Part shown: positions 35,402 through 56,697 of the stretch, piece by piece | How positions within the stretch are numbered: position 1 is the first letter of the stretch | How the letters are laid out: each line of letters begins with the position of its first letter | IMG/VR virus record: IMGVR_UViG_3300044701_004668 | Span: 2,644 to 66,643 of that record | Reading direction: 5' to 3' (one strand) | Source of the DNA: a virus | DNA: 64,000 bases | Notes under the pieces: model-generated | The model's input: the letters and a program-made list of their open reading frames with translations, nothing else | What the model was told of the DNA's origin: nothing | Database searches by the model: none | Made by a program: the position numbers and the translations under genes

Positions 35402-35449
35402 GGATCTGTCAAATAAAGGGCGGCGAGGCCTCCGGCCCCGCTTGCGAGA

Positions 35450-35477
35450 ATCATACCACGGATCCGGCCGGCGGCAA
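35450..35477 (-). promoter_or_regulatory. Sigma70-like promoter for the PQ gene
   Basis: TTGCCG-16bp-TATGAT with extended -10 TG, then a GCGGGGC/GCCTCGC hairpin. Confidence 0.65.
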
Positions 35478-36186: not shown

Positions 36187-36204
36187 AAAACACGAGGCTT
36201 GCGA

Positions 36205-36276: not shown

Positions 36277-36660
36277 CTAACTCTCACTCTCAAAAACTGA
36301 ATCGAATTTCTTAAGATAAAACCCTTGCTTCTTTTTGCCCCCTACAGAAAAGATACCAGGGTCTATTAAATAATACTTGCCCCCATTCTCTTCTTGAAAG
36401 GGCGCAATTAACTTAGCCTTCTTCAATCGTGAAAGGCTGGAAGAAAGTGAACTCGCCGTAATCCCTAGCTCATCAGCGAGAGCTTTAACCATAAACTTAA
36501 TCTTCCCAGTCCTTGAATCACAAATGCTCATCATGATAAATAACACAGAAACGTCTCTCTGGTTAATGCACTTTTCTCGCAATAACTTAAATGTTTTCGC
36601 CCCTTGCCTAACATGAAAGATCCCAAACCCAAGCCCTTCCAAACCCTGATTTTCAGCCAT
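36277..36660 (-). CDS. Winged-helix DNA-binding protein, RepL-like
   Basis: LADELGITASSLSSSLSRLKKAKLI...YLIDP.IF..G resembles the plasmid/phage RepL-type HTH. Start taken at ATG 36660. Confidence 0.65.
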   Translation of the reverse strand: MAENQGLEGLGFGIFHVRQGAKTFKLLREKCINQRDVSVLFIMMSICDSRTGKIKFMVKALADELGITASSLSSSLSRLKKAKLIAPFQEENGGKYYLIDPGIFSVGGKKKQGFYLKKFDSVFESES

Positions 36661-38414: not shown

Positions 38415-38446
38415 AAAAATGCGCCATGCTCAAAGAGCACAGCGCA
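38415..38446 (-). terminator. Terminator closing the early region
   Basis: TGCGCTGTGCTC-TTT-GAGCATGGCGCA followed by TTTTT. Confidence 0.8.
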
Positions 38447-38492
38447 CACACAATGTATTTAAGAAAAAGCTACAAACCAAATCACTGCATAA

Positions 38493-39256: not shown

Positions 39257-39277
39257 AATTTTGAGGTAAAAGAAAAA

Positions 39278-39344
39278 TGGCAAGGCTTCCCCTGCCATGC
39301 CTTAATTGTACACCATGCAGGGGGCAGAGTCAAGCATAAATAAA
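39278..39344 (-). promoter_or_regulatory. Early promoter-hairpin cassette 1
   Basis: TTTATTTATGC-TTGACT-17bp-TACAAT, then TGGCAGGG/CCTTGCCA hairpin. Confidence 0.88.
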
Positions 39345-39374
39345 ACATATTTTGCTTTTATCCGCCCCGACAAA

Positions 39375-39635
39375 CTAACAATTCTCATCCCAGATTGCAG
39401 CAAGAGTGCTGTTTAGCTCGGCATCAGAGCCGGCGAACTCTACCTTGATTGCCGCTCCATAGAGCGAACGCTCAAGGATAAACTCTTTCCATGCGTGGAA
39501 AGAGTCAAACCGCCCAATCTCCAACGTGATATCTTTATAATTGCTATACAAGATAAAGTCAACCATTTGGCGGACAGCTTTTGCTAGCTCACACTCCTCG
39601 CTGGCGAGGAGTTTGGCGAGGGCAAGATTAGCCAT
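39375..39635 (-). CDS. Small early protein
   Basis: Single gene between cassettes 2 and 1. Confidence 0.65.
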   Translation of the reverse strand: MANLALAKLLASEECELAKAVRQMVDFILYSNYKDITLEIGRFDSFHAWKEFILERSLYGAAIKVEFAGSDAELNSTLAAIWDENC

Positions 39636-39662
39636 GACAAAGATAAAACGAAGAAAGAAAGG

Positions 39663-39728
39663 TGACAGGTCTCCCCTGCCATGCCTTAATTGTACACCAT
39701 GCAGGGGCGGCTGTCAAGCATAAATAAA
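39663..39728 (-). promoter_or_regulatory. Early promoter-hairpin cassette 2
   Basis: TTTATTTATGC-TTGACA-17bp-TACAAT, then TGGCAGG/CCTGTCA hairpin. Confidence 0.9.
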
Positions 39729-39741
39729 TCTATTTTGATCT

Positions 39742-40008
39742 TTATCTCGCCCCCTTAAGAAGCTCGGCGGTGACAATTTCGTTGTACCTGTCTCTATTTT
39801 TTTCGTCATCGTACCAATCGTCCATCTCTTTCATGCTTTGTTCGTGCTGCAATCTACTGAGAATTGCGTCATACTTCTCTTGAAGTGGTTCCAGTAGTTG
39901 ATAAAGCTTGTGAACTTCCTCCCAGTCTTTCAATTGTCTGTGGCATTGAATTAGTAGCTCAAGCTTGGCTATTTCGTCGGAAAGCTTAAGCAAGTCGATG
40001 TTTTCCAT
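39742..40008 (-). CDS. Small coiled-coil early protein
   Basis: ATG 40008 after a pyrimidine-rich leader. Confidence 0.6.
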   Translation of the reverse strand: MENIDLLKLSDEIAKLELLIQCHRQLKDWEEVHKLYQLLEPLQEKYDAILSRLQHEQSMKEMDDWYDDEKNRDRYNEIVTAELLKGAR

Positions 40009-40192
40009 GGGGAAGAAGAAAGTGATGAGGGGCGAGAAAAGAAAACTAAAACGATTCAGCAACTCTTATTGCTTATGCTATGCACTCAAGAAATGAGTCA
40101 AAGCCGAAGCAGCACGCGAAGGCAAAAGTTACAGAAGACATGGCTTAAAAAGAGAATAAATAAAAACCGCCGCAAAGACGGCTTGCGAACAA

Positions 40193-40786
40193 TCAGAAAG
40201 TTTCCAGCAACTCCTCCTCTGGCTTATCTGAGTCATAAGTTGGCATGAAGCCAAAATCCTGCGGAACATCCGCAAAATCATGACTGCCATACATTGCCTG
40301 ATGCCATCTCGCGGTTCCAACATTTGCGGAACCGAAGAAAGTCTTAGCCGCCATCTTTGACAACTCTTCAAGGACAAACTTATAAGGGTCTCCAGAAATC
40401 TCTATTTCCGCCCCCATCGGCATACACATATCTTTCCCCCCGTGAAACCTTGCCAGCCTCCAAACGTAGTAACCCCTCGCATCATCAGGGCGCTTTGACC
40501 TTAATCCCTTTCGCCCCTTGATTAACTTGATGATCTCTTCCGGGTCGGGGGCGTGAAAATAACCCAGCCCCTCGCAACTTATGCACTCTTTCCACCTGCT
40601 AGGGAAAACTTTCCCCTCGTCCGTCTTGAATCCCTTGCTTAAGGTATGCCCGTCGCCCTTACATCTTGTGCAAGCCATAAGTGGCTCAATGGACGAATCT
40701 TTCAACGTGCGAGGCAAAGGTCTTACCTCAGGCTTAACTGCCACTGGGGGCTGAGGTGGGAACTCGGTGTCGTAAATAATTGACAT
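40193..40786 (-). CDS. Early protein with DnaJ-type CxxCxGxG zinc finger
   Basis: CTRCKGDG and CISCEGLG. Confidence 0.7.
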   Translation of the reverse strand: MSIIYDTEFPPQPPVAVKPEVRPLPRTLKDSSIEPLMACTRCKGDGHTLSKGFKTDEGKVFPSRWKECISCEGLGYFHAPDPEEIIKLIKGRKGLRSKRPDDARGYYVWRLARFHGGKDMCMPMGAEIEISGDPYKFVLEELSKMAAKTFFGSANVGTARWHQAMYGSHDFADVPQDFGFMPTYDSDKPEEELLETF

Positions 40787-40838
40787 AACAAAAAGAAAAG
40801 AAGTGAATCGAAAAGAAATGATTGAGAAAAATCAAAAA

Positions 40839-41036
40839 CTAAGTAAAACAGCGCTTGGTTACGTCCATGTGGCCGGGAACAGAGTAAAAGTGACTCTCTT
40901 CTCCGTTTTTATAGACATTGCACCTTGCGTCGTAAAGCTCCGCGAAAAGTTGAGCGGAGACAACGGCTGCCCCATAATCATCCGTTTCGCATTCGTAGAA
41001 AACCTTATCCGCATTGAAACATTTGATCCTGAACAT
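40839..41036 (-). CDS. Small early protein
   Basis: 65-aa ORF with TTG start. An alternative overlapping frame exists. Confidence 0.35.
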   Translation of the reverse strand: MFRIKCFNADKVFYECETDDYGAAVVSAQLFAELYDARCNVYKNGEESHFYSVPGHMDVTKRCFT

Positions 41037-41089
41037 CGCTCGGTAAATGACAAACTACAGGAGTGAACGGCTTGTGAGACTCTTGCTAT

Positions 41090-41434
41090 TCAACCATAAA
41101 CAATCTCATCAAAGCAAGCAAGCTGAAAGATAATGTCAGCATCGGCTGCATCAATCTCGCCGTATTCATGATAGATAACTGCCCACTCAATAGATTTCCA
41201 GGTTGCCTCAGGGCAGGTCTTCCTGCGACTAAAAAGATCAGCAATAACTTGCTCAACTTTTTCCTTGGAGACATGATGATGCACTAACTCCTCGTCAACA
41301 ATTGTGAATATTCCGTCTTCTTTGTTCAGATGTGACTCATGCGCCCATCCGTCAATACCGCCAAAGCTGGCAGTAGAACAAATGTCCTGGAAATCATCCC
41401 AAGAAATTTTGAAGTCAAATTGAATAGTGGCCAT
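41090..41434 (-). CDS. Acidic early protein
   Basis: IDAADADIIFQLACFDEIVYG C-terminus, a recurrent phage early-gene pattern. Confidence 0.7.
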   Translation of the reverse strand: MATIQFDFKISWDDFQDICSTASFGGIDGWAHESHLNKEDGIFTIVDEELVHHHVSKEKVEQVIADLFSRRKTCPEATWKSIEWAVIYHEYGEIDAADADIIFQLACFDEIVYG

Positions 41435-41481
41435 GTGAAAAAGGAAACAAAAAAGAAAAAAGAGAAAAAAGAAACAACTAA

Positions 41482-41712
41482 TCAGTCGGGATACGGATAC
41501 GAGTATCTTTCGTTATAGAGGTCGCAAGCGTACCTCTCCTCTGAACTTATTTCCTCCTCGTAAAACTCATCCTCCTCCTCAGACTCAAGGATAAATTTGT
41601 AAGTCGCGGAGTTTTCCGCGACCTCTAAGCGCAACCAAGGAACCGGACATTCAATGAGCCAGTTCTCAAATTCTTGAGAAGGAAAACCGTAAGGCCAGAG
41701 ATCGTTTGCCAT
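41482..41712 (-). CDS. Small very acidic early protein
   Basis: FENWLIECPV.W followed by EEEDEFYEEEISSEE. Confidence 0.65.
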   Translation of the reverse strand: MANDLWPYGFPSQEFENWLIECPVPWLRLEVAENSATYKFILESEEEDEFYEEEISSEERYACDLYNERYSYPYPD

Positions 41713-41743
41713 AGCAGAAAAAAATAAACAGCAAGAGCAGAAA

Positions 41744-41899
41744 CTAGAAAATGTCTACGTTGTTTTCGTCGCAGGCATTCACAATCTCGCTGTCGAGAAT
41801 GTCTTCGTGCGTAAACCATAATCCAAGATTTTCCACAACTTCGTACGGATCAGCATTTTCGCTGATTTTCAGTTGGACAGTCAAATGAATTGTTTTCAT
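41744..41899 (-). CDS. Small acidic early protein
   Basis: First ATG after cassette 3. Confidence 0.6.
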   Translation of the reverse strand: MKTIHLTVQLKISENADPYEVVENLGLWFTHEDILDSEIVNACDENNVDIF

Positions 41900-41921
41900 A
41901 GTAAAATAGCGATTGATAAAA

Positions 41922-41987
41922 TGACAGGTCTCCCCTGCCATGCCTTCATTGTAACGTATCCAGGGGCGGTTGTCAAGCATAAATAAA
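41922..41987 (-). promoter_or_regulatory. Early promoter-hairpin cassette 3
   Basis: TTTATTTATGC-TTGACA-17bp-TACAAT with the same hairpin as cassette 2. Confidence 0.9.
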
Positions 41988-42019
41988 ACTAGATTTACAC
42001 TTTCCCGCCCCTTGCAAAA

Positions 42020-42349
42020 TCAGATAGGATTGTTTTTGGCCCAATCGGCCAGGAACCGAAGTCTGTCGATAATTTCATCGACAGATTTAACCCTGGACTT
42101 GCGCATCCTTATGCACCTTGAAGCAACAAACTGCTCCAGCTTATAAACTCCGGCACCGTAAGAGTGGACGGAGATTGCAGACCATCTGCTGTTCTCAAAG
42201 ATTCCGTTGGCCCAGGTTTCCCTGGGGTCAAGAGAAACTTTAATCATCAGCGATGAACTACCCCCTAGGTCTGAAATGTAAGCAGTGCTCGCTGAAAAGT
42301 TATCAGCGAGGAACGCCTGCACATTCTCTAGGCACCTTTCGTCAATCAT
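42020..42349 (-). CDS. Early protein
   Basis: SDLGG...SLDPRETWANGIFENSR motif. Confidence 0.65.
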   Translation of the reverse strand: MIDERCLENVQAFLADNFSASTAYISDLGGSSSLMIKVSLDPRETWANGIFENSRWSAISVHSYGAGVYKLEQFVASRCIRMRKSRVKSVDEIIDRLRFLADWAKNNPI

Positions 42350-42350
42350 T

Positions 42351-42524
42351 TCAGCGCCCAAAGAATTTGATTTGACAGTAATTCACGTTTTCTTTCTTCA
42401 TGCAATCTCGCATGAGGTACTTGTCTTGAGCATAAAGAGTAGAAACGAAGGAGATGAAAATTGCTGTTGCGACAAACCAGACAGGAAAGTAAGGATTGCG
42501 GATGAAGGCTGATACTGTTTTCAT
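42351..42524 (-). CDS. Small membrane protein (57 aa, below the ORF-track cutoff)
   Basis: MKTVSAFIRNPYFPVWFVATAIFISFVSTLYAQDK..., one hydrophobic helix, fills the gap exactly. Confidence 0.55.
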   Translation of the reverse strand: MKTVSAFIRNPYFPVWFVATAIFISFVSTLYAQDKYLMRDCMKKENVNYCQIKFFGR

Positions 42525-42562
42525 GATCGAAAAGAAAAAATAATTGAACTGGCTTGTGAAAC

Positions 42563-42961
42563 TTAGCTGTGAGCCCTGCCAGTTGGCTCGATCAGGAAAA
42601 ATACCTGACCAACAAAGCCCTTGAGATTTGTCGGATAGCTGTATTGAGACAAGCCATCAGCGGCATCCTTGACGCACATGAAGTTTGTCTCAAACTCCAT
42701 GTTTCTGATCACTTCAGAAATGTTCGCCTTGAAATTGATGCAGAGAATTGCCAGCGTTTTCCACTGAGCATCTGTTAGAAATTTGTCAAACCTCCACGCA
42801 TTGATTGAACAGTCAAAGTCATAAACAGTGACTTCTCTTACCTTGTGGCTTCTGTAACAAGTCAGCCCCGCTGACTCATTGATCTTATCGTAAATGTCAG
42901 GCTTTGTTTCTTTGAGTTCCCCCAGGGTTGGAAACTTGACTTGATCGACAGAAGTAGTCAT
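42563..42961 (-). CDS. Early protein
   Basis: First ATG after cassette 4. Ends IEPTGRAHS. Confidence 0.65.
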   Translation of the reverse strand: MTTSVDQVKFPTLGELKETKPDIYDKINESAGLTCYRSHKVREVTVYDFDCSINAWRFDKFLTDAQWKTLAILCINFKANISEVIRNMEFETNFMCVKDAADGLSQYSYPTNLKGFVGQVFFLIEPTGRAHS

Positions 42962-42983
42962 CTGAAAAAAAGAAGAGCAATGG

Positions 42984-43055
42984 GATAAGTGGCAGAACCT
43001 GTCCGCCACTGTTTAATAATACCACAGGGCCAGCCCCTTGTCAAGCATAAATAAA
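42984..43055 (-). promoter_or_regulatory. Early promoter-hairpin cassette 4
   Basis: TTTATTTATGC-TTGACA-17bp-TATTAT, then AGTGGCGGA/TCTGCCACT hairpin. Confidence 0.9.
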
Positions 43056-43068
43056 ACAACTTTGAAAG

Positions 43069-43464
43069 TTAGAGATACTTAAAAGCCCAGTGATCCAACT
43101 CTTTTACCGGAAGCCTGGAAAAATCTTGGTGCTTCTTGAAGCTACTCAAAACGTAATCCGCAAAGTCCATTGCGTGCCGAGCCTGATAAAAATCTTCCCC
43201 GAGACACCAATTCGACTCGGCGTGACATTCTCCAAATCTTGTTTCTTTGACGACGCAAAGAAAAACAAAAAACGAATCACAGTCTCTCGTGGCACAAGAA
43301 AATTCTTTTACCGCGAACTCAATCGTGCATTTTTCCGCCCCCAACTCAAAAACAGTAATCTCCTGAGCCGTGTAAAATCCCCCTTGAAAACCGCGAGAAA
43401 GGTTTTGCCAGACAATCTCCTCGTGAACTTGATCCATTGTCATCCCGAAAAAAGAAGTAATCAT
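43069..43464 (-). CDS. Early protein
   Basis: 131-aa ORF, start uncertain. Confidence 0.55.
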   Translation of the reverse strand: MITSFFGMTMDQVHEEIVWQNLSRGFQGGFYTAQEITVFELGAEKCTIEFAVKEFSCATRDCDSFFVFLCVVKETRFGECHAESNWCLGEDFYQARHAMDFADYVLSSFKKHQDFSRLPVKELDHWAFKYL

Positions 43465-43480
43465 GATTGAAGTGCAATTG

Positions 43481-43509
43481 AATAAAGCCGCAACTCATAA
43501 TTGCGGCTT
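43481..43509 (-). terminator. Terminator-like hairpin
   Basis: AAGCCGCAA-TTATGAG-TTGCGGCTT followed by TATT. Confidence 0.6.
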
Positions 43510-43522
43510 GCGAAACTTGCGA

Positions 43523-43774
43523 TCAGCTTTCTTTTCTGATACGCTGGGCGGCCTCTTTTGCGATTCCAACAAGAAGGGCAATAGAAGCAGGTTCCCCCGC
43601 TTCCTTGACTTTCTTCCTGAGGTGAAAATGAATTGCGGGAGCAATAAGCTCCCAGCTCTTCATGTTGATGTCGTTAAAATTCTTGTCTCGACTGGCCCTT
43701 ATCTCTCGCTCGCCAATTCCAACGCGAACGGCTTCGACAATAGTTTTGTCGATAAAAATTGAAAAATCAGTCAT
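43523..43774 (-). CDS. Early protein
   Basis: 83-aa ORF overlapping the upstream stop. Confidence 0.6.
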   Translation of the reverse strand: MTDFSIFIDKTIVEAVRVGIGEREIRASRDKNFNDINMKSWELIAPAIHFHLRKKVKEAGEPASIALLVGIAKEAAQRIRKES

Positions 43775-44171
43775 CGAAGTTCTCCGAATTTGAGGTGGGG
43801 AGGGATTCGTAAAAATCCCCCCAGGTTGTCAAACGCCATCTGTTCTTGATGTGATCAAGAAGAATGGTTGGCGAGTAAGTGTCGCCAGTGTTGATGTAAC
43901 TGGCAACAATGTTGCGATGGTAGCGATCAACATAAATCTCTTCATGCTGAATCGCTTCTACCCCGTGACCGCCAAGAAGCTCGTTCAGGGCTTCAAGAAT
44001 CAACTCATTCTTTCGGGGCGGATGATAACAGGAATTGAACCATCGACAAGTTTGCGGGAACCTGCGAAAATGTAGCTCGGGATTGATCCTGTAACGAATT
44101 AACAGAATTGCAAGATTTGCGTCAAACAAAGAAACGTCGAACGCTTCTGCAATGTTTTGAGCTTTGATCAT
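43767..44171 (-). CDS. Early protein
   Basis: LNELLGGHGVEAI...YINTGDTY..T.L...TWGD, a recurrent phage family pattern. Confidence 0.7.
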   Translation of the reverse strand: MIKAQNIAEAFDVSLFDANLAILLIRYRINPELHFRRFPQTCRWFNSCYHPPRKNELILEALNELLGGHGVEAIQHEEIYVDRYHRNIVASYINTGDTYSPTILLDHIKNRWRLTTWGDFYESLPTSNSENFDD

Positions 44172-44244
44172 TTTAATCAGAGGTTGGATCCATGTCCTGT
44201 AACTGTAAGGCTATAGCCAGGTGATAGCGAAAGACCCAGCATTA

Positions 44245-44442
44245 TCATTGCAGCAGTCCTCGCTCTCTCAAGACCTGACAACCAATCTCGTCTATTTGAT
44301 TGTAGATTGGCGTGAAATCGAAACGCTTGATAATTTCTTTTGCGATCTCGGGAATTAGGGACTGATCAATTGACTCGTCATGCGGCGGGCAGGCACTCAA
44401 ATAGCCCTCAACCTCAACAACAATCCAGTTCGGGTTTGACAT
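44245..44442 (-). CDS. Small early protein
   Basis: 65-aa acidic ORF. Confidence 0.55.
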   Translation of the reverse strand: MSNPNWIVVEVEGYLSACPPHDESIDQSLIPEIAKEIIKRFDFTPIYNQIDEIGCQVLRERGLLQ

Positions 44443-44481
44443 GAGAAGACAGGCAAAAGAAAGAAAGCAGAAGTGAAAAGA

Positions 44482-44976
44482 TCAACGGCAGTCAAAACTA
44501 AACTCAGCAATGCTCGACTTGAGAGAGCTGATTTGCTTTTCCAGCTCAGCAATCTTGTTACGAGCAGCGGTGATTTCCTCCAATGTGTAGTCACAGCGAT
44601 ACTTGATGAACTCACGAGTTTCCTCTGTCATCAAGCCGGTTTCACGATTAAAGCCAGCAACGAAGAATTCCGCCTTGCAATAGTTGACCGACTCCTCAGA
44701 AGTTCTGTAGGAGTCTTTAACGTTGAAGTAAACAGAACCGAAAGAAACCTCAAACCAGCAACGAAAGCCCTCGGCCTCCACTTTTCTTTCTATCGGCTCC
44801 ACCGCCTTGCGAACGGAAGCTGACAAAGAGCCGTCTGTTAATTTGTAAATCCTCTTGCCAATGAACTGGCTGAAGACTTCTTGAAGCTGAAGCCGGAACT
44901 TTTCAGCTTCTGCATTCAGCCGATTACGGCAAACGACTTGATTCTGCAGAATCTGCAAACGAGAGAATTGAGCCAC
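44482..44976 (-). CDS. Early protein
   Basis: GTG start directly after cassette 5, C-terminal coiled coil. Confidence 0.65.
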   Translation of the reverse strand: MAQFSRLQILQNQVVCRNRLNAEAEKFRLQLQEVFSQFIGKRIYKLTDGSLSASVRKAVEPIERKVEAEGFRCWFEVSFGSVYFNVKDSYRTSEESVNYCKAEFFVAGFNRETGLMTEETREFIKYRCDYTLEEITAARNKIAELEKQISSLKSSIAEFSFDCR

Positions 44977-44997
44977 GATCTAAAAGAAAGAGAGGAA

Positions 44998-45069
44998 GAT
45001 AAGTGGCAGAACCTGTCCGCCACTGTTTAATAATACCACGACAGGGGGCGCCTGTCAAGCATAAATAAA
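44998..45069 (-). promoter_or_regulatory. Early promoter-hairpin cassette 5
   Basis: TTGACA-17bp-TATTAT. 44998-45039 is identical to 42984-43025 in cassette 4 (42 bp). Confidence 0.9.
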
Positions 45070-45078
45070 TCTATTTTG

Positions 45079-45849
45079 TCAGTTATCGCCCTCTTGCAAT
45101 TCAACAAACTGCAGCAACTGTCGCTTTGCTTTCTTGAAAAAGCTCCTGAAAACTCGCTTCAAGAACTTTGTGTCACCATTCTTGCAATTCCGTTCGATCA
45201 TCCAAAAGATCAAACCAGGGTCTTTGTAGCCTTCGCAATAGAGAACATAAATCAGAAAACTGCCGTGAACATACAACTCCTCCAAGTGAGAGTAAACATG
45301 CTGAAGGTCGTCCACGCCTCTTTTCTCTTTTGAGGCTTGCGAATAAATCTTGCACAGCAAACAGTCTCCACTATCGGGCTTAGGCAGGCCCTCTGCAATT
45401 GACTGATCCGCAAAAGCTTTGATATAATCGCAAATCATCTTATCCAACTTGCGATTCTTCTCGATGTCATCAAGAGAAGCTTCGGCAGAATTAACCACTC
45501 GCCCAGACTGATCAACAGTCATTCCGTCGAAGAACTGCACAACCTCTTCTCGCCCTTCTTTCTGCTGGGGGACATACCAAACACCACGCTTCTGAAAAAT
45601 TCGCAGGGGCGTGAAAGAATTGATACGTTCTTTCGTCGTAGAAGTCATCCAGCCGTCAGTATTGACAGTAAAAAAGCTTTGCCCCGCTTCCTGAGTGATC
45701 TTCACAATGTCTGTATTGTGAAGACGAATCAAGAACTCATCTTCTTTCTGCAAGAGATAAGTGTTGTTTGCGAGCTTCTTTTTGTCAAGATTGCGCTTTG
45801 CCTGCGCAGCAAGAATTTCCTGTGCGCGATCAAAAGTGAAAACTGTCAT
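45079..45849 (-). CDS. Early protein
   Basis: NNT.L...IRLHNTDIV...GW.TSTTKERIN motif plus GDCLLC. Confidence 0.7.
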   Translation of the reverse strand: MTVFTFDRAQEILAAQAKRNLDKKKLANNTYLLQKEDEFLIRLHNTDIVKITQEAGQSFFTVNTDGWMTSTTKERINSFTPLRIFQKRGVWYVPQQKEGREEVVQFFDGMTVDQSGRVVNSAEASLDDIEKNRKLDKMICDYIKAFADQSIAEGLPKPDSGDCLLCKIYSQASKEKRGVDDLQHVYSHLEELYVHGSFLIYVLYCEGYKDPGLIFWMIERNCKNGDTKFLKRVFRSFFKKAKRQLLQFVELQEGDN

Positions 45850-45893
45850 TGATCTAAATGAAGTGAATTAAATGGAAAGGGGGCGAGAAAGTA

Positions 45894-46052
45894 TTAGCTG
45901 GAATACTTCTCAACAATGTCCGGGAAAGCCTTGATAATTCTTTCCGTATTCTGCGGATCTGCCGCAGAAAGTGCATCTGCAAGGCGGGAAACAAAACTTC
46001 CGCCGTAACGACGCATGTTGTTAATAAGCTGAAACTTTTGAGTGTGATTCAT
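45894..46052 (-). CDS. Small early protein
   Basis: M..YGGSFV..LA.A...AD..N...I..AFP....Y, a recurrent phage family. Confidence 0.7.
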   Translation of the reverse strand: MNHTQKFQLINNMRRYGGSFVSRLADALSAADPQNTERIIKAFPDIVEKYSS

Positions 46053-46053
46053 T

Positions 46054-46311
46054 TCAGGGGCGAACGGGGGAAAACTTTTCAACCTCAACAGAAACCAGAT
46101 CGGGTCTGTTTTTCTGCAACAGCAAAGCTTTGTGCAAAGCAAGCTCCGCAGTTGACTCAAGAATGGAGAAGGAGTCCAGGATCTCGCCCTTGCGATTCCT
46201 TCTGACAAATCTCCAGCCATCGCAATTTGACGAGAAAGAATCTCTGTCGAAAGATCGAACGAGATCGTCTTGAAACGTCATCACCGTAAACTTGCAAATC
46301 TTGGAAAGCAT
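46054..46311 (-). CDS. Small early protein
   Basis: First ATG after cassette 6. Confidence 0.55.
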   Translation of the reverse strand: MLSKICKFTVMTFQDDLVRSFDRDSFSSNCDGWRFVRRNRKGEILDSFSILESTAELALHKALLLQKNRPDLVSVEVEKFSPVRP

Positions 46312-46334
46312 AAAACTAAGCAAAGCGAGGAAAC

Positions 46335-46402
46335 GTGACAGAGCTTGCCCCATCACTCTTTAAGTGTAACACACTGAGCCAGTGCTGTCAAGCATAACTA
46401 AA
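46335..46402 (-). promoter_or_regulatory. Early promoter-hairpin cassette 6
   Basis: TTTAGTTATGC-TTGACA-17bp-TACACT, then GTGATGGGG/CTCTGTCAC hairpin. Confidence 0.85.
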
Positions 46403-46411
46403 AGAATTTTT

Positions 46412-46669
46412 TTAGTTATCTCTGAGCATTGGGATTCTGTTGCCGCAGTAATCACAGAACAGAGCGGAGAAATCCCTGTTGTCTCTATCAAAGACAATCT
46501 CCCATGAATTATCAGTAGCAAATTTATCCTGATTGTTGCAGCAACAATTAGAACAAATAGCTAAATCACCTTTTGTCCTTAAATATCTACTCGCCCCTCG
46601 CAAGGGATCTGTCAGATAAAAAGCTCTTGTTAGCTGAGCAATTCGCAGAGAAGTGCTTTTAGCTGTCAT
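46412..46669 (-). CDS. Small Zn-finger protein, likely paralogue of 38713-38973
   Basis: ICSNC...W.IV...LFCDYCGNRI. Confidence 0.6.
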   Translation of the reverse strand: MTAKSTSLRIAQLTRAFYLTDPLRGASRYLRTKGDLAICSNCCCNNQDKFATDNSWEIVFDRDNRDFSALFCDYCGNRIPMLRDN

Positions 46670-46697
46670 AAATCATTCAAAAATTAGAACTGCCTCA

Positions 46698-46753
46698 ATG
46701 CTAGAAACGGGCTGTGGGGGCGTCAAAAAGCCCGAGCCGGGAAAGACTCGGGC
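46698..46753 (-). promoter_or_regulatory. Terminator fused to a sigma70 promoter
   Basis: GCCCGAGTC/GGCTCGGGC hairpin plus TTTTT. The T-run supplies TTGACG-17bp-TAGCAT. Confidence 0.65.
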
Positions 46754-46770
46754 GGGAGCAAACCATAGCC

Positions 46771-47046
46771 TCAGGGGCGATCCTGGGCGGGCTGAGAAGG
46801 TCTTGGGGGCTGGCCGGAACTGCCGGGGGCGGGGGAATCTTCTCTGGGGGCGGAAGAATGAAACTTGAGAATTAACTGAGTTCTAAGCTCAGCAATTTCC
46901 TCCTTCAACTTTACCCACGCCCTTGCATTATCCTTCCGATGCCCCACATACCTTTCTTTGATGAGCCCAGTAAACATGGACCCGTAATCATGAAAGAAAT
47001 TGAGCGACATCAAAATGATCTGACGCTGGCGCTTGGTAAGAGACAT
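46771..47046 (-). CDS. Hypothetical protein
   Basis: 91-aa ORF with a GC-rich low-complexity 3' end. Confidence 0.5.
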   Translation of the reverse strand: MSLTKRQRQIILMSLNFFHDYGSMFTGLIKERYVGHRKDNARAWVKLKEEIAELRTQLILKFHSSAPREDSPAPGSSGQPPRPSQPAQDRP

Positions 47047-47357
47047 CAGCCTTTAAGTTCAAGCTTTTGCCGAAAAGAAATGTCTGCCATTTCCTTTGCG
47101 CTCAATGGCGGCTCCCCTGAATACTCGGGGGTTGGGTCGCAATCAACGATCTCCGTCAAATTGAAAACAAATTCATCAATGACATCGTGGAGAAAAGGAA
47201 AAAGTGCATCCATGCCGCGTTTCTGGTCGGCATCATTTATCGCCTTCAATTGTTGGGCCAAAAGAATTACTTGATCCGTTGGCCAAAGAGTCTGACCCTC
47301 CGGCACGGAAAACTGAAGCGAGCAATCCTTAGCACGAGCAATCTTTTTCATTTTCAT
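47046..47357 (-). CDS. Hypothetical protein
   Basis: Coupled ORF with DPTP...GEPPLS..EM motif. Confidence 0.6.
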   Translation of the reverse strand: MKMKKIARAKDCSLQFSVPEGQTLWPTDQVILLAQQLKAINDADQKRGMDALFPFLHDVIDEFVFNLTEIVDCDPTPEYSGEPPLSAKEMADISFRQKLELKG

Positions 47358-47803
47358 TTGTCAGAAAGTGATGTTTTGGCTTGTGAAATAATCTGAGAGA
47401 ACTTTTCCGGCCCGAGAGCCTTCCTGGCAAGAACAATAATCTCTTTGTCCATAGCAGAAAAACTCTTGCTTCTTTCAACTTGAGTCCTGTACTTGATCTC
47501 CTTGGAAATTGCCTTACCGAAGAAAACCAGGACGAAACGCTTAAACGCAAAACGCTTATGTGATTCCTTCCATTCGTGGGAAGGATCAATTTTTTCAATT
47601 TCCGAGTTGACATCGGAATGAAATCGCTGAATTGCGTTTTCCGCCTCAATCTCAAGCATCAAGCTCCTGAGATCATCAATGTGCATTGAAAGTACGTCGG
47701 GCAAAGCAATTTCTCTTTCAAGAGAATTACTCTTAAAATAAAGCCCTTTCTTATCTTGAAACTCAGGAGTGTTGAGCCAGCGTTCGTCCGTTGCAAATGT
47801 CAT
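47354..47803 (-). CDS. Hypothetical protein
   Basis: 149-aa ORF with ATGA overlaps on both sides. Confidence 0.6.
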   Translation of the reverse strand: MTFATDERWLNTPEFQDKKGLYFKSNSLEREIALPDVLSMHIDDLRSLMLEIEAENAIQRFHSDVNSEIEKIDPSHEWKESHKRFAFKRFVLVFFGKAISKEIKYRTQVERSKSFSAMDKEIIVLARKALGPEKFSQIISQAKTSLSDK

Positions 47804-48174
47804 TCGTTAGTCCAGCGAATAATTTGTCGAGTTTGAAAGAGGTGTCGAGTTTGAAAGAGGCAGCCGTCTTGATAAAGAGCAATCTGCCACTTGTTTCCTG
47901 CATCATCGGACTCCTGGAAACCCCAGTTGTCCAAGATAATTTCCCAGGATTCCCAATAGTATTCATGATCCGGCCCCGAAAGGCAAATGTCCCAATCTTC
48001 TTGCGGAACATCTTCGGTTTTCTCGTAACGCTCGCAGAAAACCTGCGGAACATAGATCCCGTGGTGATCGTCAACAATAAGAATTGACTCAAACCTGGAA
48101 GCGTCTTCGCCCTCTAAATAGTGATCCTCCCAGTTTCTGTCCGGGCTCATCTGAGGATTCATGGAAACTGACAT
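47800..48174 (-). CDS. Acidic early protein
   Basis: DDHHGIYVPQ.F...GPDHEYYWESW...LYQDG. First ATG after cassette 7. Confidence 0.7.
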   Translation of the reverse strand: MSVSMNPQMSPDRNWEDHYLEGEDASRFESILIVDDHHGIYVPQVFCERYEKTEDVPQEDWDICLSGPDHEYYWESWEIILDNWGFQESDDAGNKWQIALYQDGCLFQTRHLFQTRQIIRWTNE

Positions 48175-48195
48175 GATAAATAAAGCAGTTGAAAA

Positions 48196-48263
48196 GTGAT
48201 GGCAGGATGCCCCCACAGACTCAATAGTACCATCAATGGGGGCGGCTGTCAAGCATAAATAAA
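48196..48263 (-). promoter_or_regulatory. Early promoter cassette 7
   Basis: TTTATTTATGC-TTGACA-17bp-TACTAT. Confidence 0.88.
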
Positions 48264-48276
48264 TGAATTGCTGAGT

Positions 48277-48687
48277 CTAGCTGAAATAGATTCTCCCGTC
48301 ATCGCTCAAACAAGCCGTAATCTCACCAAAAGTCTTGGCGGCAGCATTTAGCAACCCCCCAACTTTTTCATCCCAGATAGAGGAATCCCAGAAACCAGTT
48401 CCCTCATAATTCCTGCTGCAAATGAAGTAAAACTCAGAACAGCCTTCGGGGTGGGCGCCAATGTAAAAATCATCAACGCTTTCCCAGGCATGATCGACTA
48501 CCTCATCAATCTCGCCCTCGACTTTATCAATGAATTGCTGAAATTCAAGATAAATTCTCTTGACGGAATCTGGGTCAACCTCTGCCGGGGAAAAAACTTT
48601 GTCCAGGGGCGTGCCAAAATCATCAGTTGAAGTTGACAGCATTGCGTCAACAAGTGCAAGAGCCGTAGGGTTCTTAATGGTTGTCAT
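48277..48687 (-). CDS. Acidic early protein
   Basis: F..SRN..GTGFWD...L...A..FGE......DG motif. Confidence 0.7.
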   Translation of the reverse strand: MTTIKNPTALALVDAMLSTSTDDFGTPLDKVFSPAEVDPDSVKRIYLEFQQFIDKVEGEIDEVVDHAWESVDDFYIGAHPEGCSEFYFICSRNYEGTGFWDSSIWDEKVGGLLNAAAKTFGEITACLSDDGRIYFS

Positions 48688-48692
48688 TTGAA

Positions 48693-49010
48693 TCAATTGA
48701 AGTAGTTGCCGATTTTGAATTCTTTTTCCGCCCCAGCAAGAATCTCTGCGGCAGCAAAAAGAATGACCGTATTCTGATAAAGCCTGAAATCGTATTTCAG
48801 CTCCTGGGGGCAGAAACTGTACCAATACTGCCCAAACCACTTATCGACAAACTGAAGACAGGGTTCCATTCCTAGCCCGAAATAGCAATACCCGAAATTT
48901 GCCTGATGAATAGAAGACAACTCCCTCATTAGAGAATTCCAAGAGGGGCCATCTACATTCTCCAGATAAAGAACAAACTTTACGGCTTCATCAATGACTT
49001 GCTGATTCAT
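48693..49010 (-). CDS. Hypothetical protein
   Basis: ORF in the operon, start at ATG 49010. Confidence 0.55.
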   Translation of the reverse strand: MNQQVIDEAVKFVLYLENVDGPSWNSLMRELSSIHQANFGYCYFGLGMEPCLQFVDKWFGQYWYSFCPQELKYDFRLYQNTVILFAAAEILAGAEKEFKIGNYFN

Positions 49011-49359
49011 GATCCTTGAGAATTTGTTCAAGAGTGATGGGGCGCATGTCGTCATCGACGCCCGTACTTTGCATCATCTTCTCCCTGATCTCCCGAAGGT
49101 GATGAAGATGTGCCAAGGCCATGTTGCTTTTAGAAAGCAAGAATTCACGAAGATAGTCGCGCCTCCAGAACTGAAAGAACATTTTGCGCTTTACTGTTTT
49201 TGAAAGGCCCACTGTTTCTTCCGCAACAGATCGAGCCCTTTTGTCCAGGGCCTCGATAATCGCAAGAACGTCACCAACATAAAGCTCGGGAGTTTTCACG
49301 TTTTGATAGAAAAGAGAAACTTTTGCCTGCCTTGAGTCAGAATAGTCAAATGAATTCAT
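48991..49359 (-). CDS. Hypothetical protein
   Basis: ORF in the operon. Confidence 0.55.
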   Translation of the reverse strand: MNSFDYSDSRQAKVSLFYQNVKTPELYVGDVLAIIEALDKRARSVAEETVGLSKTVKRKMFFQFWRRDYLREFLLSKSNMALAHLHHLREIREKMMQSTGVDDDMRPITLEQILKDHESASH

Positions 49360-49849
49360 GAAGATGCTCGGGAATTTCTGCATTGTTCCAGCTCGGAAAA
49401 ATCAAGCTGGTGAGATCGGCAAAAGAGATGGGCGTGATAGAACCGCCGAAGCTGTCATAACCCTTGGCAACCATGTAAAACTTGGCTGACGCGAAAAGAG
49501 ATTTATTGAGGATCGCACCATCAAGATCAATCCTCAGCAGCCTTGCAATCATCACCTCAGCAGAAGAAAATACATAATCTTTCGACTCCTGCTTTTTCCA
49601 TTCGCCTACCTTGCAGGACATAGGGAGAAAGTGAGTGCCAAACTCAGTAACAATCCAGAGCCTGACTTCGCCGCGACACATCCTCTTGAGAATGCGTGCA
49701 TCGTGAACTGCGACATCGGAAAGGTTGTGCCTAACAATGTCATCTGCCATGAAACACATGCGTTCATGCAGAGTTTGTTTTTCGTTGGCTGCGGGCGCAA
49801 CCTTGACCTGTTCTTGATGTGAAATAATTTGGAGACTGGAAGTGGTCAT
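49346..49849 (-). CDS. Early protein
   Basis: First ATG after cassette 8. D..VHD...L...WIV...GTH motif. Confidence 0.65.
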   Translation of the reverse strand: MTTSSLQIISHQEQVKVAPAANEKQTLHERMCFMADDIVRHNLSDVAVHDARILKRMCRGEVRLWIVTEFGTHFLPMSCKVGEWKKQESKDYVFSSAEVMIARLLRIDLDGAILNKSLFASAKFYMVAKGYDSFGGSITPISFADLTSLIFPSWNNAEIPEHLHEFI

Positions 49850-49915
49850 GCAGGGCTGGTGCCTTGGACTCTTACAGTATGGCACCAATCGGCCCCCTTG
49901 TCAAGCATAAATAAA
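49850..49915 (-). promoter_or_regulatory. Early promoter cassette 8
   Basis: TTTATTTATGC-TTGACA-17bp-CATACT. Confidence 0.85.
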
Positions 49916-53695: not shown

Positions 53696-55180
53696 GTGAA
53701 ACCCAGAGAGCGGCAAACTCTCTGGGCTTCGATAGCGGATACCGCCGCTCCCAAAATGATAACAGCCCCTCACCCGAATCAGCAACTCACCCCCCAGGAA
53801 CAATGGCTCAGGGCGGCCTACACCGGGGAGTGGTACGAGCTGATTGAGAAAACAGCCGGCGGGCAGTGGCGCTCGCTAGTGAAGCCGTACAAAATTGAAG
53901 GCGCTCTAAAACATCTTGCAGATGAACGCAAGATTACAGGCTACCGCCCCGAAAAGAACACTCGGGCAATCGTAATTGACATTGACCACAAAAAAGGCTA
54001 TCGCAGCAAATACTGGCACAAGGGCGGAGAGAGCAAAGAAATTCTTTTGCTGCAAGAACAAGTAGAAAAAATTGGTTGCTCCTTATCTGTAATTCGCAGC
54101 AGCTATTCAGGGGGGCTTCACCTCTATGTCTCTCTGCCTGAGGCGATCCCCTGCTGGGTCGCTCACTGGGCCGGGGTGGCTCTCCTGAGGGCCTCCGGCA
54201 TGGAGGAGGGCCAAGGGCAGGCAGAGGTCTTCCCGAGCCGCCTCGACTACCTGGAGCAGGGGCGGGCAAGGAGCCACGGGTTCAGGCTGCCAGGCCAGGA
54301 GGGCAGCGCCCTGGTGGTGAATGGGGCGATGGTGGAAGATGGGGATTTGATATATAAACAGTTGAATGAAGATTTGGAAAACACGGAAATCTGCTATGAA
54401 TGGCAAAATTTTATTGAGAGCGCAAAATCACAACGCAAATTGCGCAACAGAAAACCGGGGGCGAGCAATGAATGCGTAAATGCAAAAGATTTAAGGTGGA
54501 CCGAATCAGGGCAAAGTCAAGAGATACTTAAAAAAGTCACAACCACTGTAAGATTTGCCCACCCCAACATAAATTGCCCGGTTGAGCTGGGGCGGATTAT
54601 TCGTGAAACGGTAGTGCGCCTGGAAGGCTTTGATAGATACGCCTCAAATAACACCAAAAAAGATTTGATGCGCGAGAATGGGGGCATACATGAAAGATGG
54701 GCGCGTTCTTCACTAAGAAAAGAATTCAGAGGGCGTGCATCAGAAAACGAAACGGGTCTGGGCGGTGATAAAAAACGCAATGAAAGACTTTTCAAGCAAA
54801 GTCGAGTCAAACTTCAACGTTTATGGAAAAAATACAAGGAAGCTGGCAAGTGGAGCAAGAGGCAGGTTGCCAAAGCAGCCGGAATGGCCAGGGCAACCCT
54901 TGAGAAGCACTGGGAATACTGGGTTTCTCTACTGGCCTACACCCCCCCTAGTAACGGTGTCCGCCAGGGGGGCAGCCGGTACAGGAAGGCAATGTCGCCT
55001 TCTGGTAGGTATATTTGCAGAAAAATTGCTTCAAAATTCGATCAGGCTTTTGTTTACCTTGATGAATTCGATTGCTTTATCAAAAATCCACTTAAAAAAT
55101 TGCTAGATAGCTCAATACTTTGCAGTTCCTCGCCCCCAAGAGATTTACCAGTGGTTGACACATGGCACCATCGGTGCTAG
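53696..55180 (+). CDS. AEP-family primase / plasmid-type replication protein with C-terminal HTH
   Basis: IVIDID (DxD), RSSYSGGLHLY (SxxGxH), EVFP and FRLPGQ motifs, plus HTH SKRQVAKAAGMARATLEKH. True start may be ATG 53756. Confidence 0.72.
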   Translation: MKPRERQTLWASIADTAAPKMITAPHPNQQLTPQEQWLRAAYTGEWYELIEKTAGGQWRSLVKPYKIEGALKHLADERKITGYRPEKNTRAIVIDIDHKKGYRSKYWHKGGESKEILLLQEQVEKIGCSLSVIRSSYSGGLHLYVSLPEAIPCWVAHWAGVALLRASGMEEGQGQAEVFPSRLDYLEQGRARSHGFRLPGQEGSALVVNGAMVEDGDLIYKQLNEDLENTEICYEWQNFIESAKSQRKLRNRKPGASNECVNAKDLRWTESGQSQEILKKVTTTVRFAHPNINCPVELGRIIRETVVRLEGFDRYASNNTKKDLMRENGGIHERWARSSLRKEFRGRASENETGLGGDKKRNERLFKQSRVKLQRLWKKYKEAGKWSKRQVAKAAGMARATLEKHWEYWVSLLAYTPPSNGVRQGGSRYRKAMSPSGRYICRKIASKFDQAFVYLDEFDCFIKNPLKKLLDSSILCSSSPPRDLPVVDTWHHRC

Positions 55181-56634: not shown

Positions 56635-56663
56635 TTGCGCACTGGGACCAATGGTGCTACTGT
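56635..56663 (+). promoter_or_regulatory. Sigma70-like promoter
   Basis: TTGCGC-17bp-TACTGT with extended -10 TG. Confidence 0.55.
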
Positions 56664-56697
56664 TTGAAAGTTGTTAGCCCGTTGAAGCGCACCAGCC

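Follow-up and report, generated by a model that had tools for sequence, protein, structure and literature searches.

The element that is conserved and covaries in the early promoters of this uncultured freshwater phage is a short hairpin at the transcription start, not the long stem that the promoter spacer can form with its own leader. Eight sigma-70-type promoters were found on the minus strand at 39305-49904 of the window (the whole stretch of DNA analysed, 64,000 nucleotides). Our favoured reading, to which we give an even chance, is that the eight loci represent composite cassettes for early genes in a tailed phage, resembling the promoter-early stem-loop (PeSL) cassettes, and that their spacer-leader complementarity is mostly inherited and is not the cassette's purpose.

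Layout of the repeated promoters

Between 39328 and 49910 the minus strand carries eight copies of TTATGCTTGACA, seven of them exact and one with one mismatch. On this strand each copy consists of an AT-rich tract, a TTGACA -35 box (TTGACT in copy 1), a 17-nt spacer, a -10 box of the TAnnnT type (TACAAT, TATTAT, TACACT, TACTAT and CATACT occur among the eight) and a leader. By sequence, the copies group as 1-3, 4-5 and the single copies 6, 7 and 8. Copies 1 and 2 flank an 86-aa ORF, and the leftward early operon has copy 8 as its first promoter. Small ORFs, some shared with relatives and some lineage-specific, make up the early region as a mosaic; against the cassette reading, the genes by which this genome differs from its relatives do not lie at cassette borders. 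The features are as follows.

39305..39333, minus: copy 1 promoter core, TTGACT, 17-nt spacer, TACAAT; spacer arm CCCCTGCATG at 39314-39323
39277..39298, minus: copy 1 5' hairpin, 9 bp, GAAG loop, then TTTTCTTTT; overlaps leader arm CATGGCAGGGG (39289-39299)
39689..39717, minus: copy 2 promoter core, TTGACA, spacer, TACAAT; spacer arm CCCCTGCATG at 39698-39707
39663..39683, minus: copy 2 leader; leader arm CATGGCAGGGG at 39673-39683, 5' hairpin at 39663-39681
41921..41976, minus: copy 3; promoter 41948-41976, 5' hairpin 41921-41941, long stem of 6+5 bp
42988..43044, minus: copy 4; promoter 43016-43044, 5' hairpin 42988-43010; predicted fold two local hairpins, no long stem
45002..45058, minus: copy 5; promoter 45030-45058, 5' hairpin 45002-45024
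46335..46391, minus: copy 6; promoter 46363-46391, 5' hairpin 46335-46356; spacer-internal hairpin CACTG/CAGTG
48196..48252, minus: copy 7; promoter 48224-48252, spacer arm GCCCCCA 48237-48243, leader arm TGGGGGC 48209-48215, 5' hairpin 48196-48216
49857..49904, minus: copy 8; promoter 49876-49904, TGGTGCC 49881-49887, leader GGCACCA 49857-49863
35432..35477, minus: the 35450 site, promoter-like TTGCCG-16-TATGAT; CCGGCC(GG) in spacer, GGCCGG in leader
56635..56694, plus: the 56635 site, promoter TTGCGC-17-TACTGT; palindrome GGACCAATGGTGC at 56645-56657 in spacer, GCACCA just 5' of the ATG at 56698
55165..55177, plus: operator-like palindrome GCACCATCGGTGC, in the spacer of a TTGACA-17-TAGGCT promoter

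The hairpin at the transcription start

The 5' hairpin is G-rich, has 8-11 bp and sets in at the expected transcription start or no more than 1-2 nt from it; in nearly all promoters of the family its onset lies 5-9 nt past the -10 box, and in most of them a U-rich tail comes next. Copy 8 has no 5' hairpin. Beyond the hairpin the leader is pyrimidine- and U-rich and reaches the ATG of a small gene without a Shine-Dalgarno sequence. Among 21 leaders, five of the eight predicted pairs showed two-sided changes, and 92.3% of cells were paired compared with 80.2% in shuffles (none of 500 reached the native value) and 42-56% in a control with a slid partner. Additionally, the sense strand folded better than the antisense strand in 66 of 78 promoters (p=3e-10), and the hairpins of copies 1 and 2 were flagged by a scan for terminator-like structures. 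The same type of cassette is widespread among relatives (G001-G003, G005, G007, G010, G011, G015, G016, G023 and G024). The hairpins of G013 and G022 have no U tract after them, a point in favour of a role at the 5' end alone.

Pairing between spacer and leader

The preliminary description had proposed that spacers differing between copies are each complementary to, and covary with, their own leader. The complementary words on which this was based were all found in the sequence, in copies 1-8 and at 35450 and 56635: CCCCTGC-ATG/CAT-G-GCAGGGG in copies 1-2, CCCCTG/CAGGGG in copy 3, CCTGT/ACAGG in copy 4, CCTGTC/GACAGG in copy 5, GCCCCCA/TGGGGGC in copy 7 and TGGTGCC/GGCACCA in copy 8, together with the -35 TGACA and a downstream TGTCA in copies 2, 3 and 6. 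These words do exist, and they yield two or three good stems (copies 1-2 and 7); the covariation, however, is unsupported. Copy 6 has no spacer-leader stem, and the better partner of the copy 5 spacer word CCTGTC is GACAGG in the -35 region, not the leader. The CCGGCC/GGCCGG pair at 35450 is a word that is its own reverse complement, and the TGGTGC/GCACCA pair at 56635 belongs to a plus-strand promoter. Furthermore, the spacers are homologous rather than independently different, since five of the eight (copies 1, 2, 3, 5 and 7) share a GCCCC(C) core.

The longest Watson-Crick match between each spacer and its own 30-nt leader, set against 2000 spacer shuffles, gave p values of 0.034, 0.027, 0.096, 0.24, 0.079, 0.69, 0.014 and 0.15 for copies 1-8. 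By duplex energy (1000 shuffles) the values were 0.146, 0.136, 0.393, 0.176, 0.186, 0.793, 0.026 and 0.158, so that copy 7 alone matched its leader significantly beyond composition-matched shuffles. Own leaders compared with permuted ones gave p = 0.061 within this genome, and were better with genomes pooled (p=0.004 for 25 promoters, p=0.002 for 41), orthologues across genomes not being independent. The energy gained by the whole fold relative to the local ones was significant only for copies 7 (p=0.03) and 2 (p=0.045), and reached p<=0.05 in 6 of 78 phage-family promoters, which is the chance rate. In addition, a search for a fixed-register covarying stripe between spacer and leader found none, and in eight groups of orthologous promoters native pairs were equivalent to chimeric ones (-13.14 vs -13.09 kcal/mol, p=0.55). 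A similar slight bias was present in 250 unrelated phage promoters (mean z -0.23, sd 1.32, 7.6% at p<=0.05); the mean z of the eight copies was -0.81. Shared ancestry and base composition account for most of the spacer-leader matching, and selection on the long stem is weak or absent. The earlier idea that structure rather than sequence is conserved thus fails for this stem, which has no covarying register, tolerates swaps and draws on a shared spacer core.

As had been noted, the long stem precludes the short 5' hairpin, and the reverse also holds. The accompanying suggestion, that read-through RNA folds differently from locally started RNA, holds in prediction for half of the copies (2, 3, 7 and 8), where the long stem is the minimum-energy fold of the read-through RNA, whereas in copies 1, 4, 5 and 6 local hairpins are favoured. 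The best-supported long stem is that of copy 7; the read-through fold of copy 2 is a composite long stem (-24 kcal/mol) in which the -35 box pairs with CTGTCA and the spacer with the left arm. Loops measure 14-27 nt (15-27 in copies 2, 3, 7 and 8). In every significant stem the spacer's partner is the left arm at the start site, the long stem shows a modest sense-strand bias (p=0.008), and several of the best stems in relatives rely on G.U pairs that are possible on the sense strand only. The long stem is missing in distant relatives that keep the promoter and 5' hairpin (G005, G007, G010-G016 and G023/24). There are hints of real selection on the long stem: the pooled permutation test; the copy 7 orthologue in G002, where CGCCCTCA/TGAGGGCG replaces GCCCCCA/TGGGGGC and both sides have changed; a 9-10 bp stem at 38566 in G001; and stems of 10 and 8 bp in the unrelated fragment G008.

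Cassette function and comparison with known systems

The closest known system is the PeSL cassettes of the T4-type phages RB49/phi1, PST/T4 and nt-1/KVP40 (Arbiol et al. 2010, PMC2839356; Comeau et al. 2014, PMC4122927). As these reports describe them, PeSLs are defined in T4-type phages, have a Shine-Dalgarno sequence and carry stem-loops before the start site, commonly overlapping the -10 (PMC2839356; PMC4122927). On that description, both systems combine a near-consensus sigma-70 promoter and an AT-rich upstream tract with a fused G/C-rich stem-loop that uses sense-strand G.T pairs and varies in position, -10 overlap included. In both, a variable region holds many copies interspersed with small early genes of unknown function, and near-identical cassettes can surround one ORF, as copies 1 and 2 do here. 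In contrast, the present phage is not T4-type (genome 66.6 kb, portal at most 30% identical to that of any cultured phage), its conserved stem lies after the start site and its leader lacks a Shine-Dalgarno sequence; terminator activity and inter-cassette recombination are putative here. The set looks like PeSL-like cassettes in a lineage unrelated to T4-type phages.

In such a cassette the promoter would be a strong one for the host sigma-70-type polymerase, the hairpin could protect the 5' end of locally started mRNA, and hairpin and U-rich tract together could attenuate transcription from the upstream cassette, making the early region a chain of partly insulated units; we infer the start site, termination and RNA stability alike. 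A hairpin and U tract at the start would be expected to terminate locally started RNA too, which makes the insulator role awkward. Stem-loops of the ompA type at the 5' terminus stabilise bacterial mRNA. The present hairpin likewise lies at, or at most 1-2 nt from, the expected 5' end with little or no single-stranded overhang, and differs in the intrinsic-terminator-like U-rich tract that usually follows immediately. The complementarity would stem mostly from the C-rich spacer core (GCCCCTGC) lying opposite the hairpin's G-rich 5' arm. Both probably go back to one ancestral cassette that multiplied across the genome, with pairing decayed in half of the copies. Where pairing is still strong (copies 1-2 and 7, weakly 3), read-through RNA may pair the spacer with the left arm instead of forming the short hairpin; the -35 could additionally pair with the right arm in copies 2, 3 and 7. 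This might alter the share of read-through transcription terminating at the cassette, and we would regard it as a minor, weakly selected modulation rather than as the reason for the cassette.

It is doubtful that the pairing is instead a selected RNA switch keyed to transcription origin, with the spacer as an anti-hairpin segment present only in read-through RNA. The spacer would be the first pairing partner of the terminator-like hairpin's 5' arm, and polymerases from upstream would act differently at the U tract, with termination prevented in some copies and the hairpin extended in others. Transcription attenuators use alternative terminator/antiterminator pairing, and their classical topology is recognisable here as spacer (1), left arm (2), right arm (3) and U-rich tract, with 1:2 and 2:3 pairings in copies 1, 2, 3 and 7; however, segment 1 lies inside the promoter and so occurs only in RNA from upstream, there is no evident sensing element, and the alternative pairing is not kept in relatives. 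The uniform targeting of the left arm, the sense-strand bias, the pooled test and the G002, G001 and G008 stems speak for a switch. Against it stand the chance-rate energy gain, the cost-free swaps, the missing register, the absence of the long stem where relatives keep the hairpin, the similar bias of unrelated promoters, the preference of four copies for local hairpins and a predicted effect on the hairpin base that varies among copies. We also think it improbable that the spacers are binding sites of a lineage-specific phage regulator recognising a conserved word in every early promoter, for example for early shut-off, with the leader match as a side effect or second half-site. Spacers are indeed alike within lineages and unlike between them (GCCCCTGC core here and in G001/G002, CGTAACGTGTAACGTGC in G010/11/15/16, TACCACT...AGTGGTA in G023/24), and a recurrent palindrome, described below, fits such a role; however, copies 1-7 share no palindrome or fixed-spacing repeat, no candidate regulator was found, and in G023/24, where the promoter core itself contains strong hairpins (mean z -2.3 and -4.2), the arms change jointly with G.T pairs, a better fit to a nucleic-acid hairpin than to one protein's operator.

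The two functions raised in the preliminary description are less plausible still. T7 early mRNA has RNase III sites, and the present stems are likewise intergenic hairpins of polycistronic early RNA, existing only in read-through transcripts. RNase III substrates require about two helical turns, which makes processing very unlikely: copy 2 reaches some 16-17 interrupted pairs at its -24 kcal/mol, but the remaining copies have at most 11 around their wide loops, much shorter than in T7, and relatives have not kept the stems. A DNA cruciform or single-stranded DNA hairpin presenting or hiding the -10, which inverted repeats do flank, is hardly credible. Cruciform extrusion requires near-perfect repeats and short spacers, and the loops of N4-type hairpin promoters measure 3 nt; here the arms are imperfect, the loops long, and several of the best stems depend on G.T pairs, which turn into A.C mismatches on the opposite strand.

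Lastly, copy 8 and the 55165 and 56645 sites look like something different from the other copies, namely a conserved, operator-like palindrome in the spacers of early-control promoters, whose binder would be a phage regulator. The palindrome GSACCAWTGGTSC occurs in three promoter spacers of this genome, copy 8 and the 56635 site included, and recurs in the first promoters of relatives. Copy 8 and 56635, previously offered as differing examples, thus carry one word that is part of this palindrome; in copy 8 it is degenerate (49882-49894), and TGGTGCC falls within it.

The early promoter cassettes and their genomic setting

The virus record is a single contig of 66,643 bp, and the DNA sequencing runs containing it carry freshwater or lake metagenome labels. 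PHROG matches were obtained for a terminase large subunit, a portal, tail proteins and a DnaB-like helicase. The best matches of the portal among cultured phages were to cyanophages and Pseudomonas phages at 24-30% identity, and megablast of the cassette region against cultured phages gave no match. On the minus strand, the structural genes extend up to ~35.5 kb and a series of small ORFs, in which the cassettes are located, goes from ~50 kb down to ~36 kb; the replication genes are read rightward from ~51.5 kb. A tRNA scan found none, and no Rfam family covered the cassettes in a scan of 35000-57000, where the sole hit was a sub-threshold match to sar RNA at 53694-53745 on the minus strand (29.5 bits against a gathering score of 43, E=0.027), probably due to chance. 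A stretch of ~700 bp of non-coding hexamer arrays (35550-36290) separates the early block from the packaging genes. Its plus-strand units TAACTA, TAACCA and TAACTG form families with 15-24 overlapping copies and periods of 12/18 nt, and eight 13-nt GTGAATGTCAYAA-like repeats lie at 36026-36169; possible roles of this stretch are those of an origin, a packaging site or an array for protein binding. Additionally, a strong terminator-like hairpin (38419-38447, minus strand; 13 pairs and then TTTTAATGCT) was found inside the minus-strand early block, with more minus-strand ORFs downstream of it, to ~36.3 kb.

The cassettes are eight repeated minus-strand early promoters at 39305-49904 (copies 1-8, numbered from the low coordinate up), packed within 10.6 kb, and TTATGCTTGACA occurs eight times on the same strand at 39328-49910 (seven exact copies and one with a single mismatch). 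In every copy an AT-rich tract, gttttatttatgc, precedes the -35 box TTGACA (TTGACT in copy 1), which is followed by a 17-nt spacer and a -10 box that reads TACAAT, TATTAT, TACACT, TACTAT or CATACT; as TTGACA-17-TAnnnT promoters, the eight copies match a sigma-70-like consensus at 10-11 of 12 positions. Each leader extends as far as the start codon (ATG or GTG) of a small ORF; the early leaders are rich in pyrimidines and lack a Shine-Dalgarno sequence. Such sequences are little used in the genome as a whole, where 14 of the 67 ORFs of at least 100 aa carry a Shine-Dalgarno-like 4-mer at -20 to -5. The host of the phage family apparently makes no use of Shine-Dalgarno sequences and its translation probably starts without such pairing. 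By descent the copies fall into the families {1,2,3}, {4,5}, 6, 7 and 8, and a GCCCC(C) core is common to five spacers (copies 1, 2, 3, 5 and 7). Copies 1 and 2 (39305-39717) are near-identical cassettes on either side of a single 86-aa ORF at 39375-39635. Copies 4 and 5 (43016-45058) have identical upstream tracts and identical -10 boxes plus leaders, with a CCCTGT core displaced by a few bases between their spacers.

Two relatives, G001 and G002, were obtained at 73-74% identity with the early-region protein at 45079-45849 as query, a third (G003) was picked up by a motif scan, and portal alignment gave 77 further loci. Early regions were compared in G001-G003, G005, G007, G010, G011, G013, G015, G016, G022, G023 and G024, plus the unrelated fragment G008. 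For each orthologous promoter the comparison covered about three independent lineages. All of these except G008 carry the same cassette type (AT-rich tract, TTGACA, 17 nt, -10 box, hairpin), and relative to G001 and G002 the early region is mosaic, with some ORFs shared and others unique. The hits of pattern scans of viral and metagenome contigs for the upstream tract plus -35 motif were nearly all unrelated phage sigma-70 promoters, which we kept only as a background set.

The hairpin at the predicted transcription start

A short 5' hairpin is present in copies 1-7, and its first base falls on the canonical start position (7th nt past the -10 box, +/-2); in relatives it begins 5-9 nt after the -10, and in each genome the first promoter of the operon lacks it. 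RNAalifold predicted eight pairs from 21 leaders of the present genome, G001 and G002, five of them with changes on both sides. Paired cells amounted to 92.3%, against 80.2% in shuffles (0/500 were as high) and 42-56% after sliding the partner by 1-3 columns, and the covariation score was 0.512 against 0.285 in shuffles. Furthermore, two stem positions are mostly G.U. In 66 of 78 promoters the sense strand gives a better fold than the antisense strand (p=3e-10), and the hairpin is therefore a structure of the sense RNA. Conservation of the hairpin extends through the phage family to ~52% portal identity. The short 5' hairpin, and not the longer stem formed by spacer and leader, is the conserved element with compensatory changes.

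In most lineages the hairpin is followed by a U-rich tract, e.g. TTTTGTTCTTT, while G013 and G022 have the hairpin without it. Copies 1, 3 and 7 have a good combination of hairpin and U tract, copy 2 a moderate one and copies 4-6 a weak one, and a terminator-consensus scan, working from the sequence alone, flags the hairpins of copies 1 and 2 as terminator-like.

Complementarity between spacers and leaders

The preliminary description had claimed that promoter spacers covary with the leader of their own copy, so that a long stem with the -10 box in its loop is conserved as structure. All the word pairs that it listed are present in the sequence. Against shuffled spacers, the expected excess was found for copies 1, 2 and 7 by longest match and for copy 7 by duplex energy, and for no other copy, and the excess of word pairs over chance depends on the test used. 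Since shuffles on average already give a 4-5-mer, the 5-mer and 6-mer matches in copies 3-5 are unexceptional.

Spacer against own leader in copies 1-8: p by longest Watson-Crick match (own 30-nt leader, 2000 spacer shuffles); p by duplex energy (1000 shuffles)
Copy 1: 0.034; 0.146
Copy 2: 0.027; 0.136
Copy 3: 0.096; 0.393
Copy 4: 0.24; 0.176
Copy 5: 0.079; 0.186
Copy 6: 0.69; 0.793
Copy 7: 0.014; 0.026
Copy 8: 0.15; 0.158

The spacers of copies 3-6 pair better with the leaders of other copies than with their own, and own against permuted leaders gave p=0.061 within the present genome. When the energy of the whole region was compared with that of its two parts folded separately, which allows for competing local hairpins, the gain reached p≤0.05 only in copies 7 (0.03) and 2 (0.045). 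The predicted minimum-energy fold from the -35 to the hairpin end is the long stem with the -10 in its loop in copies 2, 3, 7 and 8, and two separate local hairpins in copies 1, 4, 5 and 6; z-scores of this segment range from -0.38 to -2.78 over the eight copies. Stems overlapping the promoter occur in every copy, at differing places. A segment upstream that is complementary to the 5' arm of the hairpin, as an attenuator with alternative pairing would have, was found in copies 1, 2 and 7, and in relatives it shows neither conservation nor covariation.

In ungapped alignments of the present genome, G001 and G002, no register of spacer and leader columns beat permuted leaders. Pooling 41 promoters gave one fixed-register stripe (p=0.017). 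Its two sides are the 3' ends of spacer and hairpin, both of them conserved, and we read it as conserved sequence instead of covariation. Among 78 family promoters, the energy gain had p≤0.05 in six, which is the chance rate, and its mean z was positive in several lineages. Pooled tests of own against permuted leaders gave p=0.004 (25 promoters) and p=0.002 (41 promoters), values inflated by the lack of independence among orthologues of different genomes. Of the long-stem tests the cleanest is the exchange of spacers and leaders among orthologous promoters of the present genome, G001 and G002, with orthology taken from flanking genes: native pairs averaged -13.14 kcal/mol and chimeric pairs -13.09 (p=0.55, 8 groups), and native pairs were favoured only in the copy-4 group. 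The background of 250 unrelated phage promoters had a mean z of -0.23 (sd 1.32) with 7.6% at p≤0.05, from which the mean z of -0.81 of the eight copies is not clearly different, and a test for any structure from -35 to +16 gave a mean z of -0.96 here and -0.65 in 150 background promoters.

Several results speak for the preliminary description. In the copy-7 orthologue of G002 the pair is CGCCCTCA/TGAGGGCG, against GCCCCCA/TGGGGGC here, with both sides changed, and G001 has one mismatch at that position; we did not retain this two-sided change as strong evidence since, although real in the sequence, chimeras fold about equally well. Promoters at 38566 in G001 and 26380 in G002 have a 9-10 bp stem CCCGTCATG(T)/(A)CATGGCGGG (p=0.012 and 0.008), and G008 has CCCTCTGATC/GATCAGGGGG (p<0.001) and CCATGGAT/ATCCGTGG (p=0.021). 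All these stems, that of the copy-7 orthologue included, pair with the first transcript bases, and several use G.U pairs, which exist on the sense strand only. The sense strand gives slightly better spacer-leader duplexes (p=0.008), a difference to which base composition may contribute in part. A link between U-tract strength and spacer-complement strength was suggestive in this genome and failed in G001 and G002. The promoter-straddling dyad is, then, recurrent but patchy, and does not amount to a conserved helix. The original observation is confirmed in part, in that its words do exist in the sequence; covariation of spacer and leader is not shown.

Two other spacer arrangements were seen in the family. 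In G023 and G024 (loci L528 and L529) a spacer hairpin extends from the last -35 base to the first -10 bases and its arms change together (ATACCACTA/TAGTGGTAT, ATAGCACT/AGTGCTAT, plus G.T variants), and in G010, G011, G015 and G016 (L524-L527) most spacers are variants of CGTAACGTGTAACGTGC.

The long stem had also been extended to two further sites, 35450 and 56635. At 35450, CCGGCC is its own reverse complement, which makes the match trivial. Copy 8 and 56635 do not use different words but a single shared one. Where the leftward and rightward early genes meet, three promoters have the palindrome GSACCAWTGGTSC in their spacers:

49882-49894, GSACCAWTGGTSC with 2 mismatches, in the spacer of copy 8
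55165-55177, GSACCAWTGGTSC with 1 mismatch, in a promoter spacer
56645-56657, GSACCAWTGGTSC with 0 mismatches, in a promoter spacer

Related palindromes occupy the same place in the first promoters of G001, G002, G005 and G007, and GSACCAWTGGTSC is probably an operator. Its 10 matches window-wide are in themselves not above chance (4/100 shuffles reach this number). The 7-mer GGCACCA is not over-represented in the window either (7 found, 7.35 expected), and its occurrence in the leader of copy 8 is a third half-site or chance.

Related systems and possible functions

By analogy, the cassettes are a set resembling the promoter-early stem-loop (PeSL) cassettes of T4-type phages, a known kind of unit, and a literature search for other promoter/stem-loop repeats in phages found none closer. 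Passages of PMC2839356 describe PeSLs as a near-consensus sigma-70 promoter with an AT-rich region upstream and a stable stem-loop, often polyG...polyC with G-T pairs marked, most commonly placed between -35 and -10 or overlapping the -10, the whole sitting between small ORFs of hyperplastic regions. According to its main text, one such stem-loop was a strong terminator in a lacZ test, and its authors proposed that the stem-loop attenuates upstream transcription and that the cassettes mediate gene shuffling (PMC2839356). The cassettes described here share the sigma-70-like -35 and -10 boxes at ~17-nt spacing behind an AT-rich tract, the G/C-rich stem-loop fused to or overlapping the promoter, and the many copies among small early ORFs in a variable region. 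In contrast, their conserved stem follows the start site, outside the five positions set out in those passages of PMC2839356, they have no Shine-Dalgarno sequence at the 3' end, and the phage, with a genome of 66.6 kb, is not a T4-type myovirus. On recombination between cassettes, through mini-circles or gene swaps at their borders, the observations point both ways: copies 1 and 2 flank one ORF and copies 4 and 5 have identical flanks, but gene differences between the present genome and its relatives do not fall at cassette borders.

The host polymerase would use these promoters early in infection, the start-site hairpin could protect the RNA 5' end, and hairpin and U tract together may attenuate incoming transcription. 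The match between spacer and leader would be mainly inherited, with a C-rich spacer core facing the G-rich left arm, and any selection on it would be weak. Of the mechanisms proposed in the preliminary description, whose interpretation is partly supported, RNase III sites are unlikely, as a T7-type site needs an interrupted helix of ~20 bp and only copy 2 reaches ~16-17 pairs, the others having at most 11. A cruciform is likewise unlikely: N4-type hairpin promoters have a short stem, a 3-nt loop and a fixed position, whereas here loops are 14-27 nt and the register varies. An alternative read-through fold is plausible in half of the copies. In copies 1-2, 3 and 7 the match would re-fold read-through RNA. 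We consider it improbable that the promoter embeds an anti-hairpin, formed by a spacer that only polymerases arriving from upstream transcribe, through which a terminator-like start-site hairpin treats read-through and locally started RNA differently. A difficulty for the attenuation of incoming transcription is that the start-site hairpin with its U tract should act on locally started RNA too. The predicted composite stems of copies 2 and 3 have the same end base as the short hairpin and that of copy 7 ends four bases before the U tract, so that any effect on termination need not be uniform across copies.

If an anti-hairpin did operate, it would provide origin-dependent control of termination that needs no protein or ligand. 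If the cassettes function as PeSLs do, such composite units would not be special to T4-type phages and would also structure the early gene region in an unrelated family of uncultured freshwater phages. The claim of spacer-leader covariation contributes little to the significance of the cassettes, and the start-site hairpin is a clean candidate for studying how phages bring together promoter strength, protection of the RNA 5' end and the insulation of small early genes.

Lastly, in other T4-type pairs, passages of PMC4122927 place the PeSL stem-loop directly upstream of the promoter. This layout is matched on the minus strand at 46698-46753 by a GC-rich, terminator-like hairpin of 9 bp (GCCCGAG...CTCGGGC), whose T run passes directly into a promoter-like site, TTGACG-17-TAGCAT.
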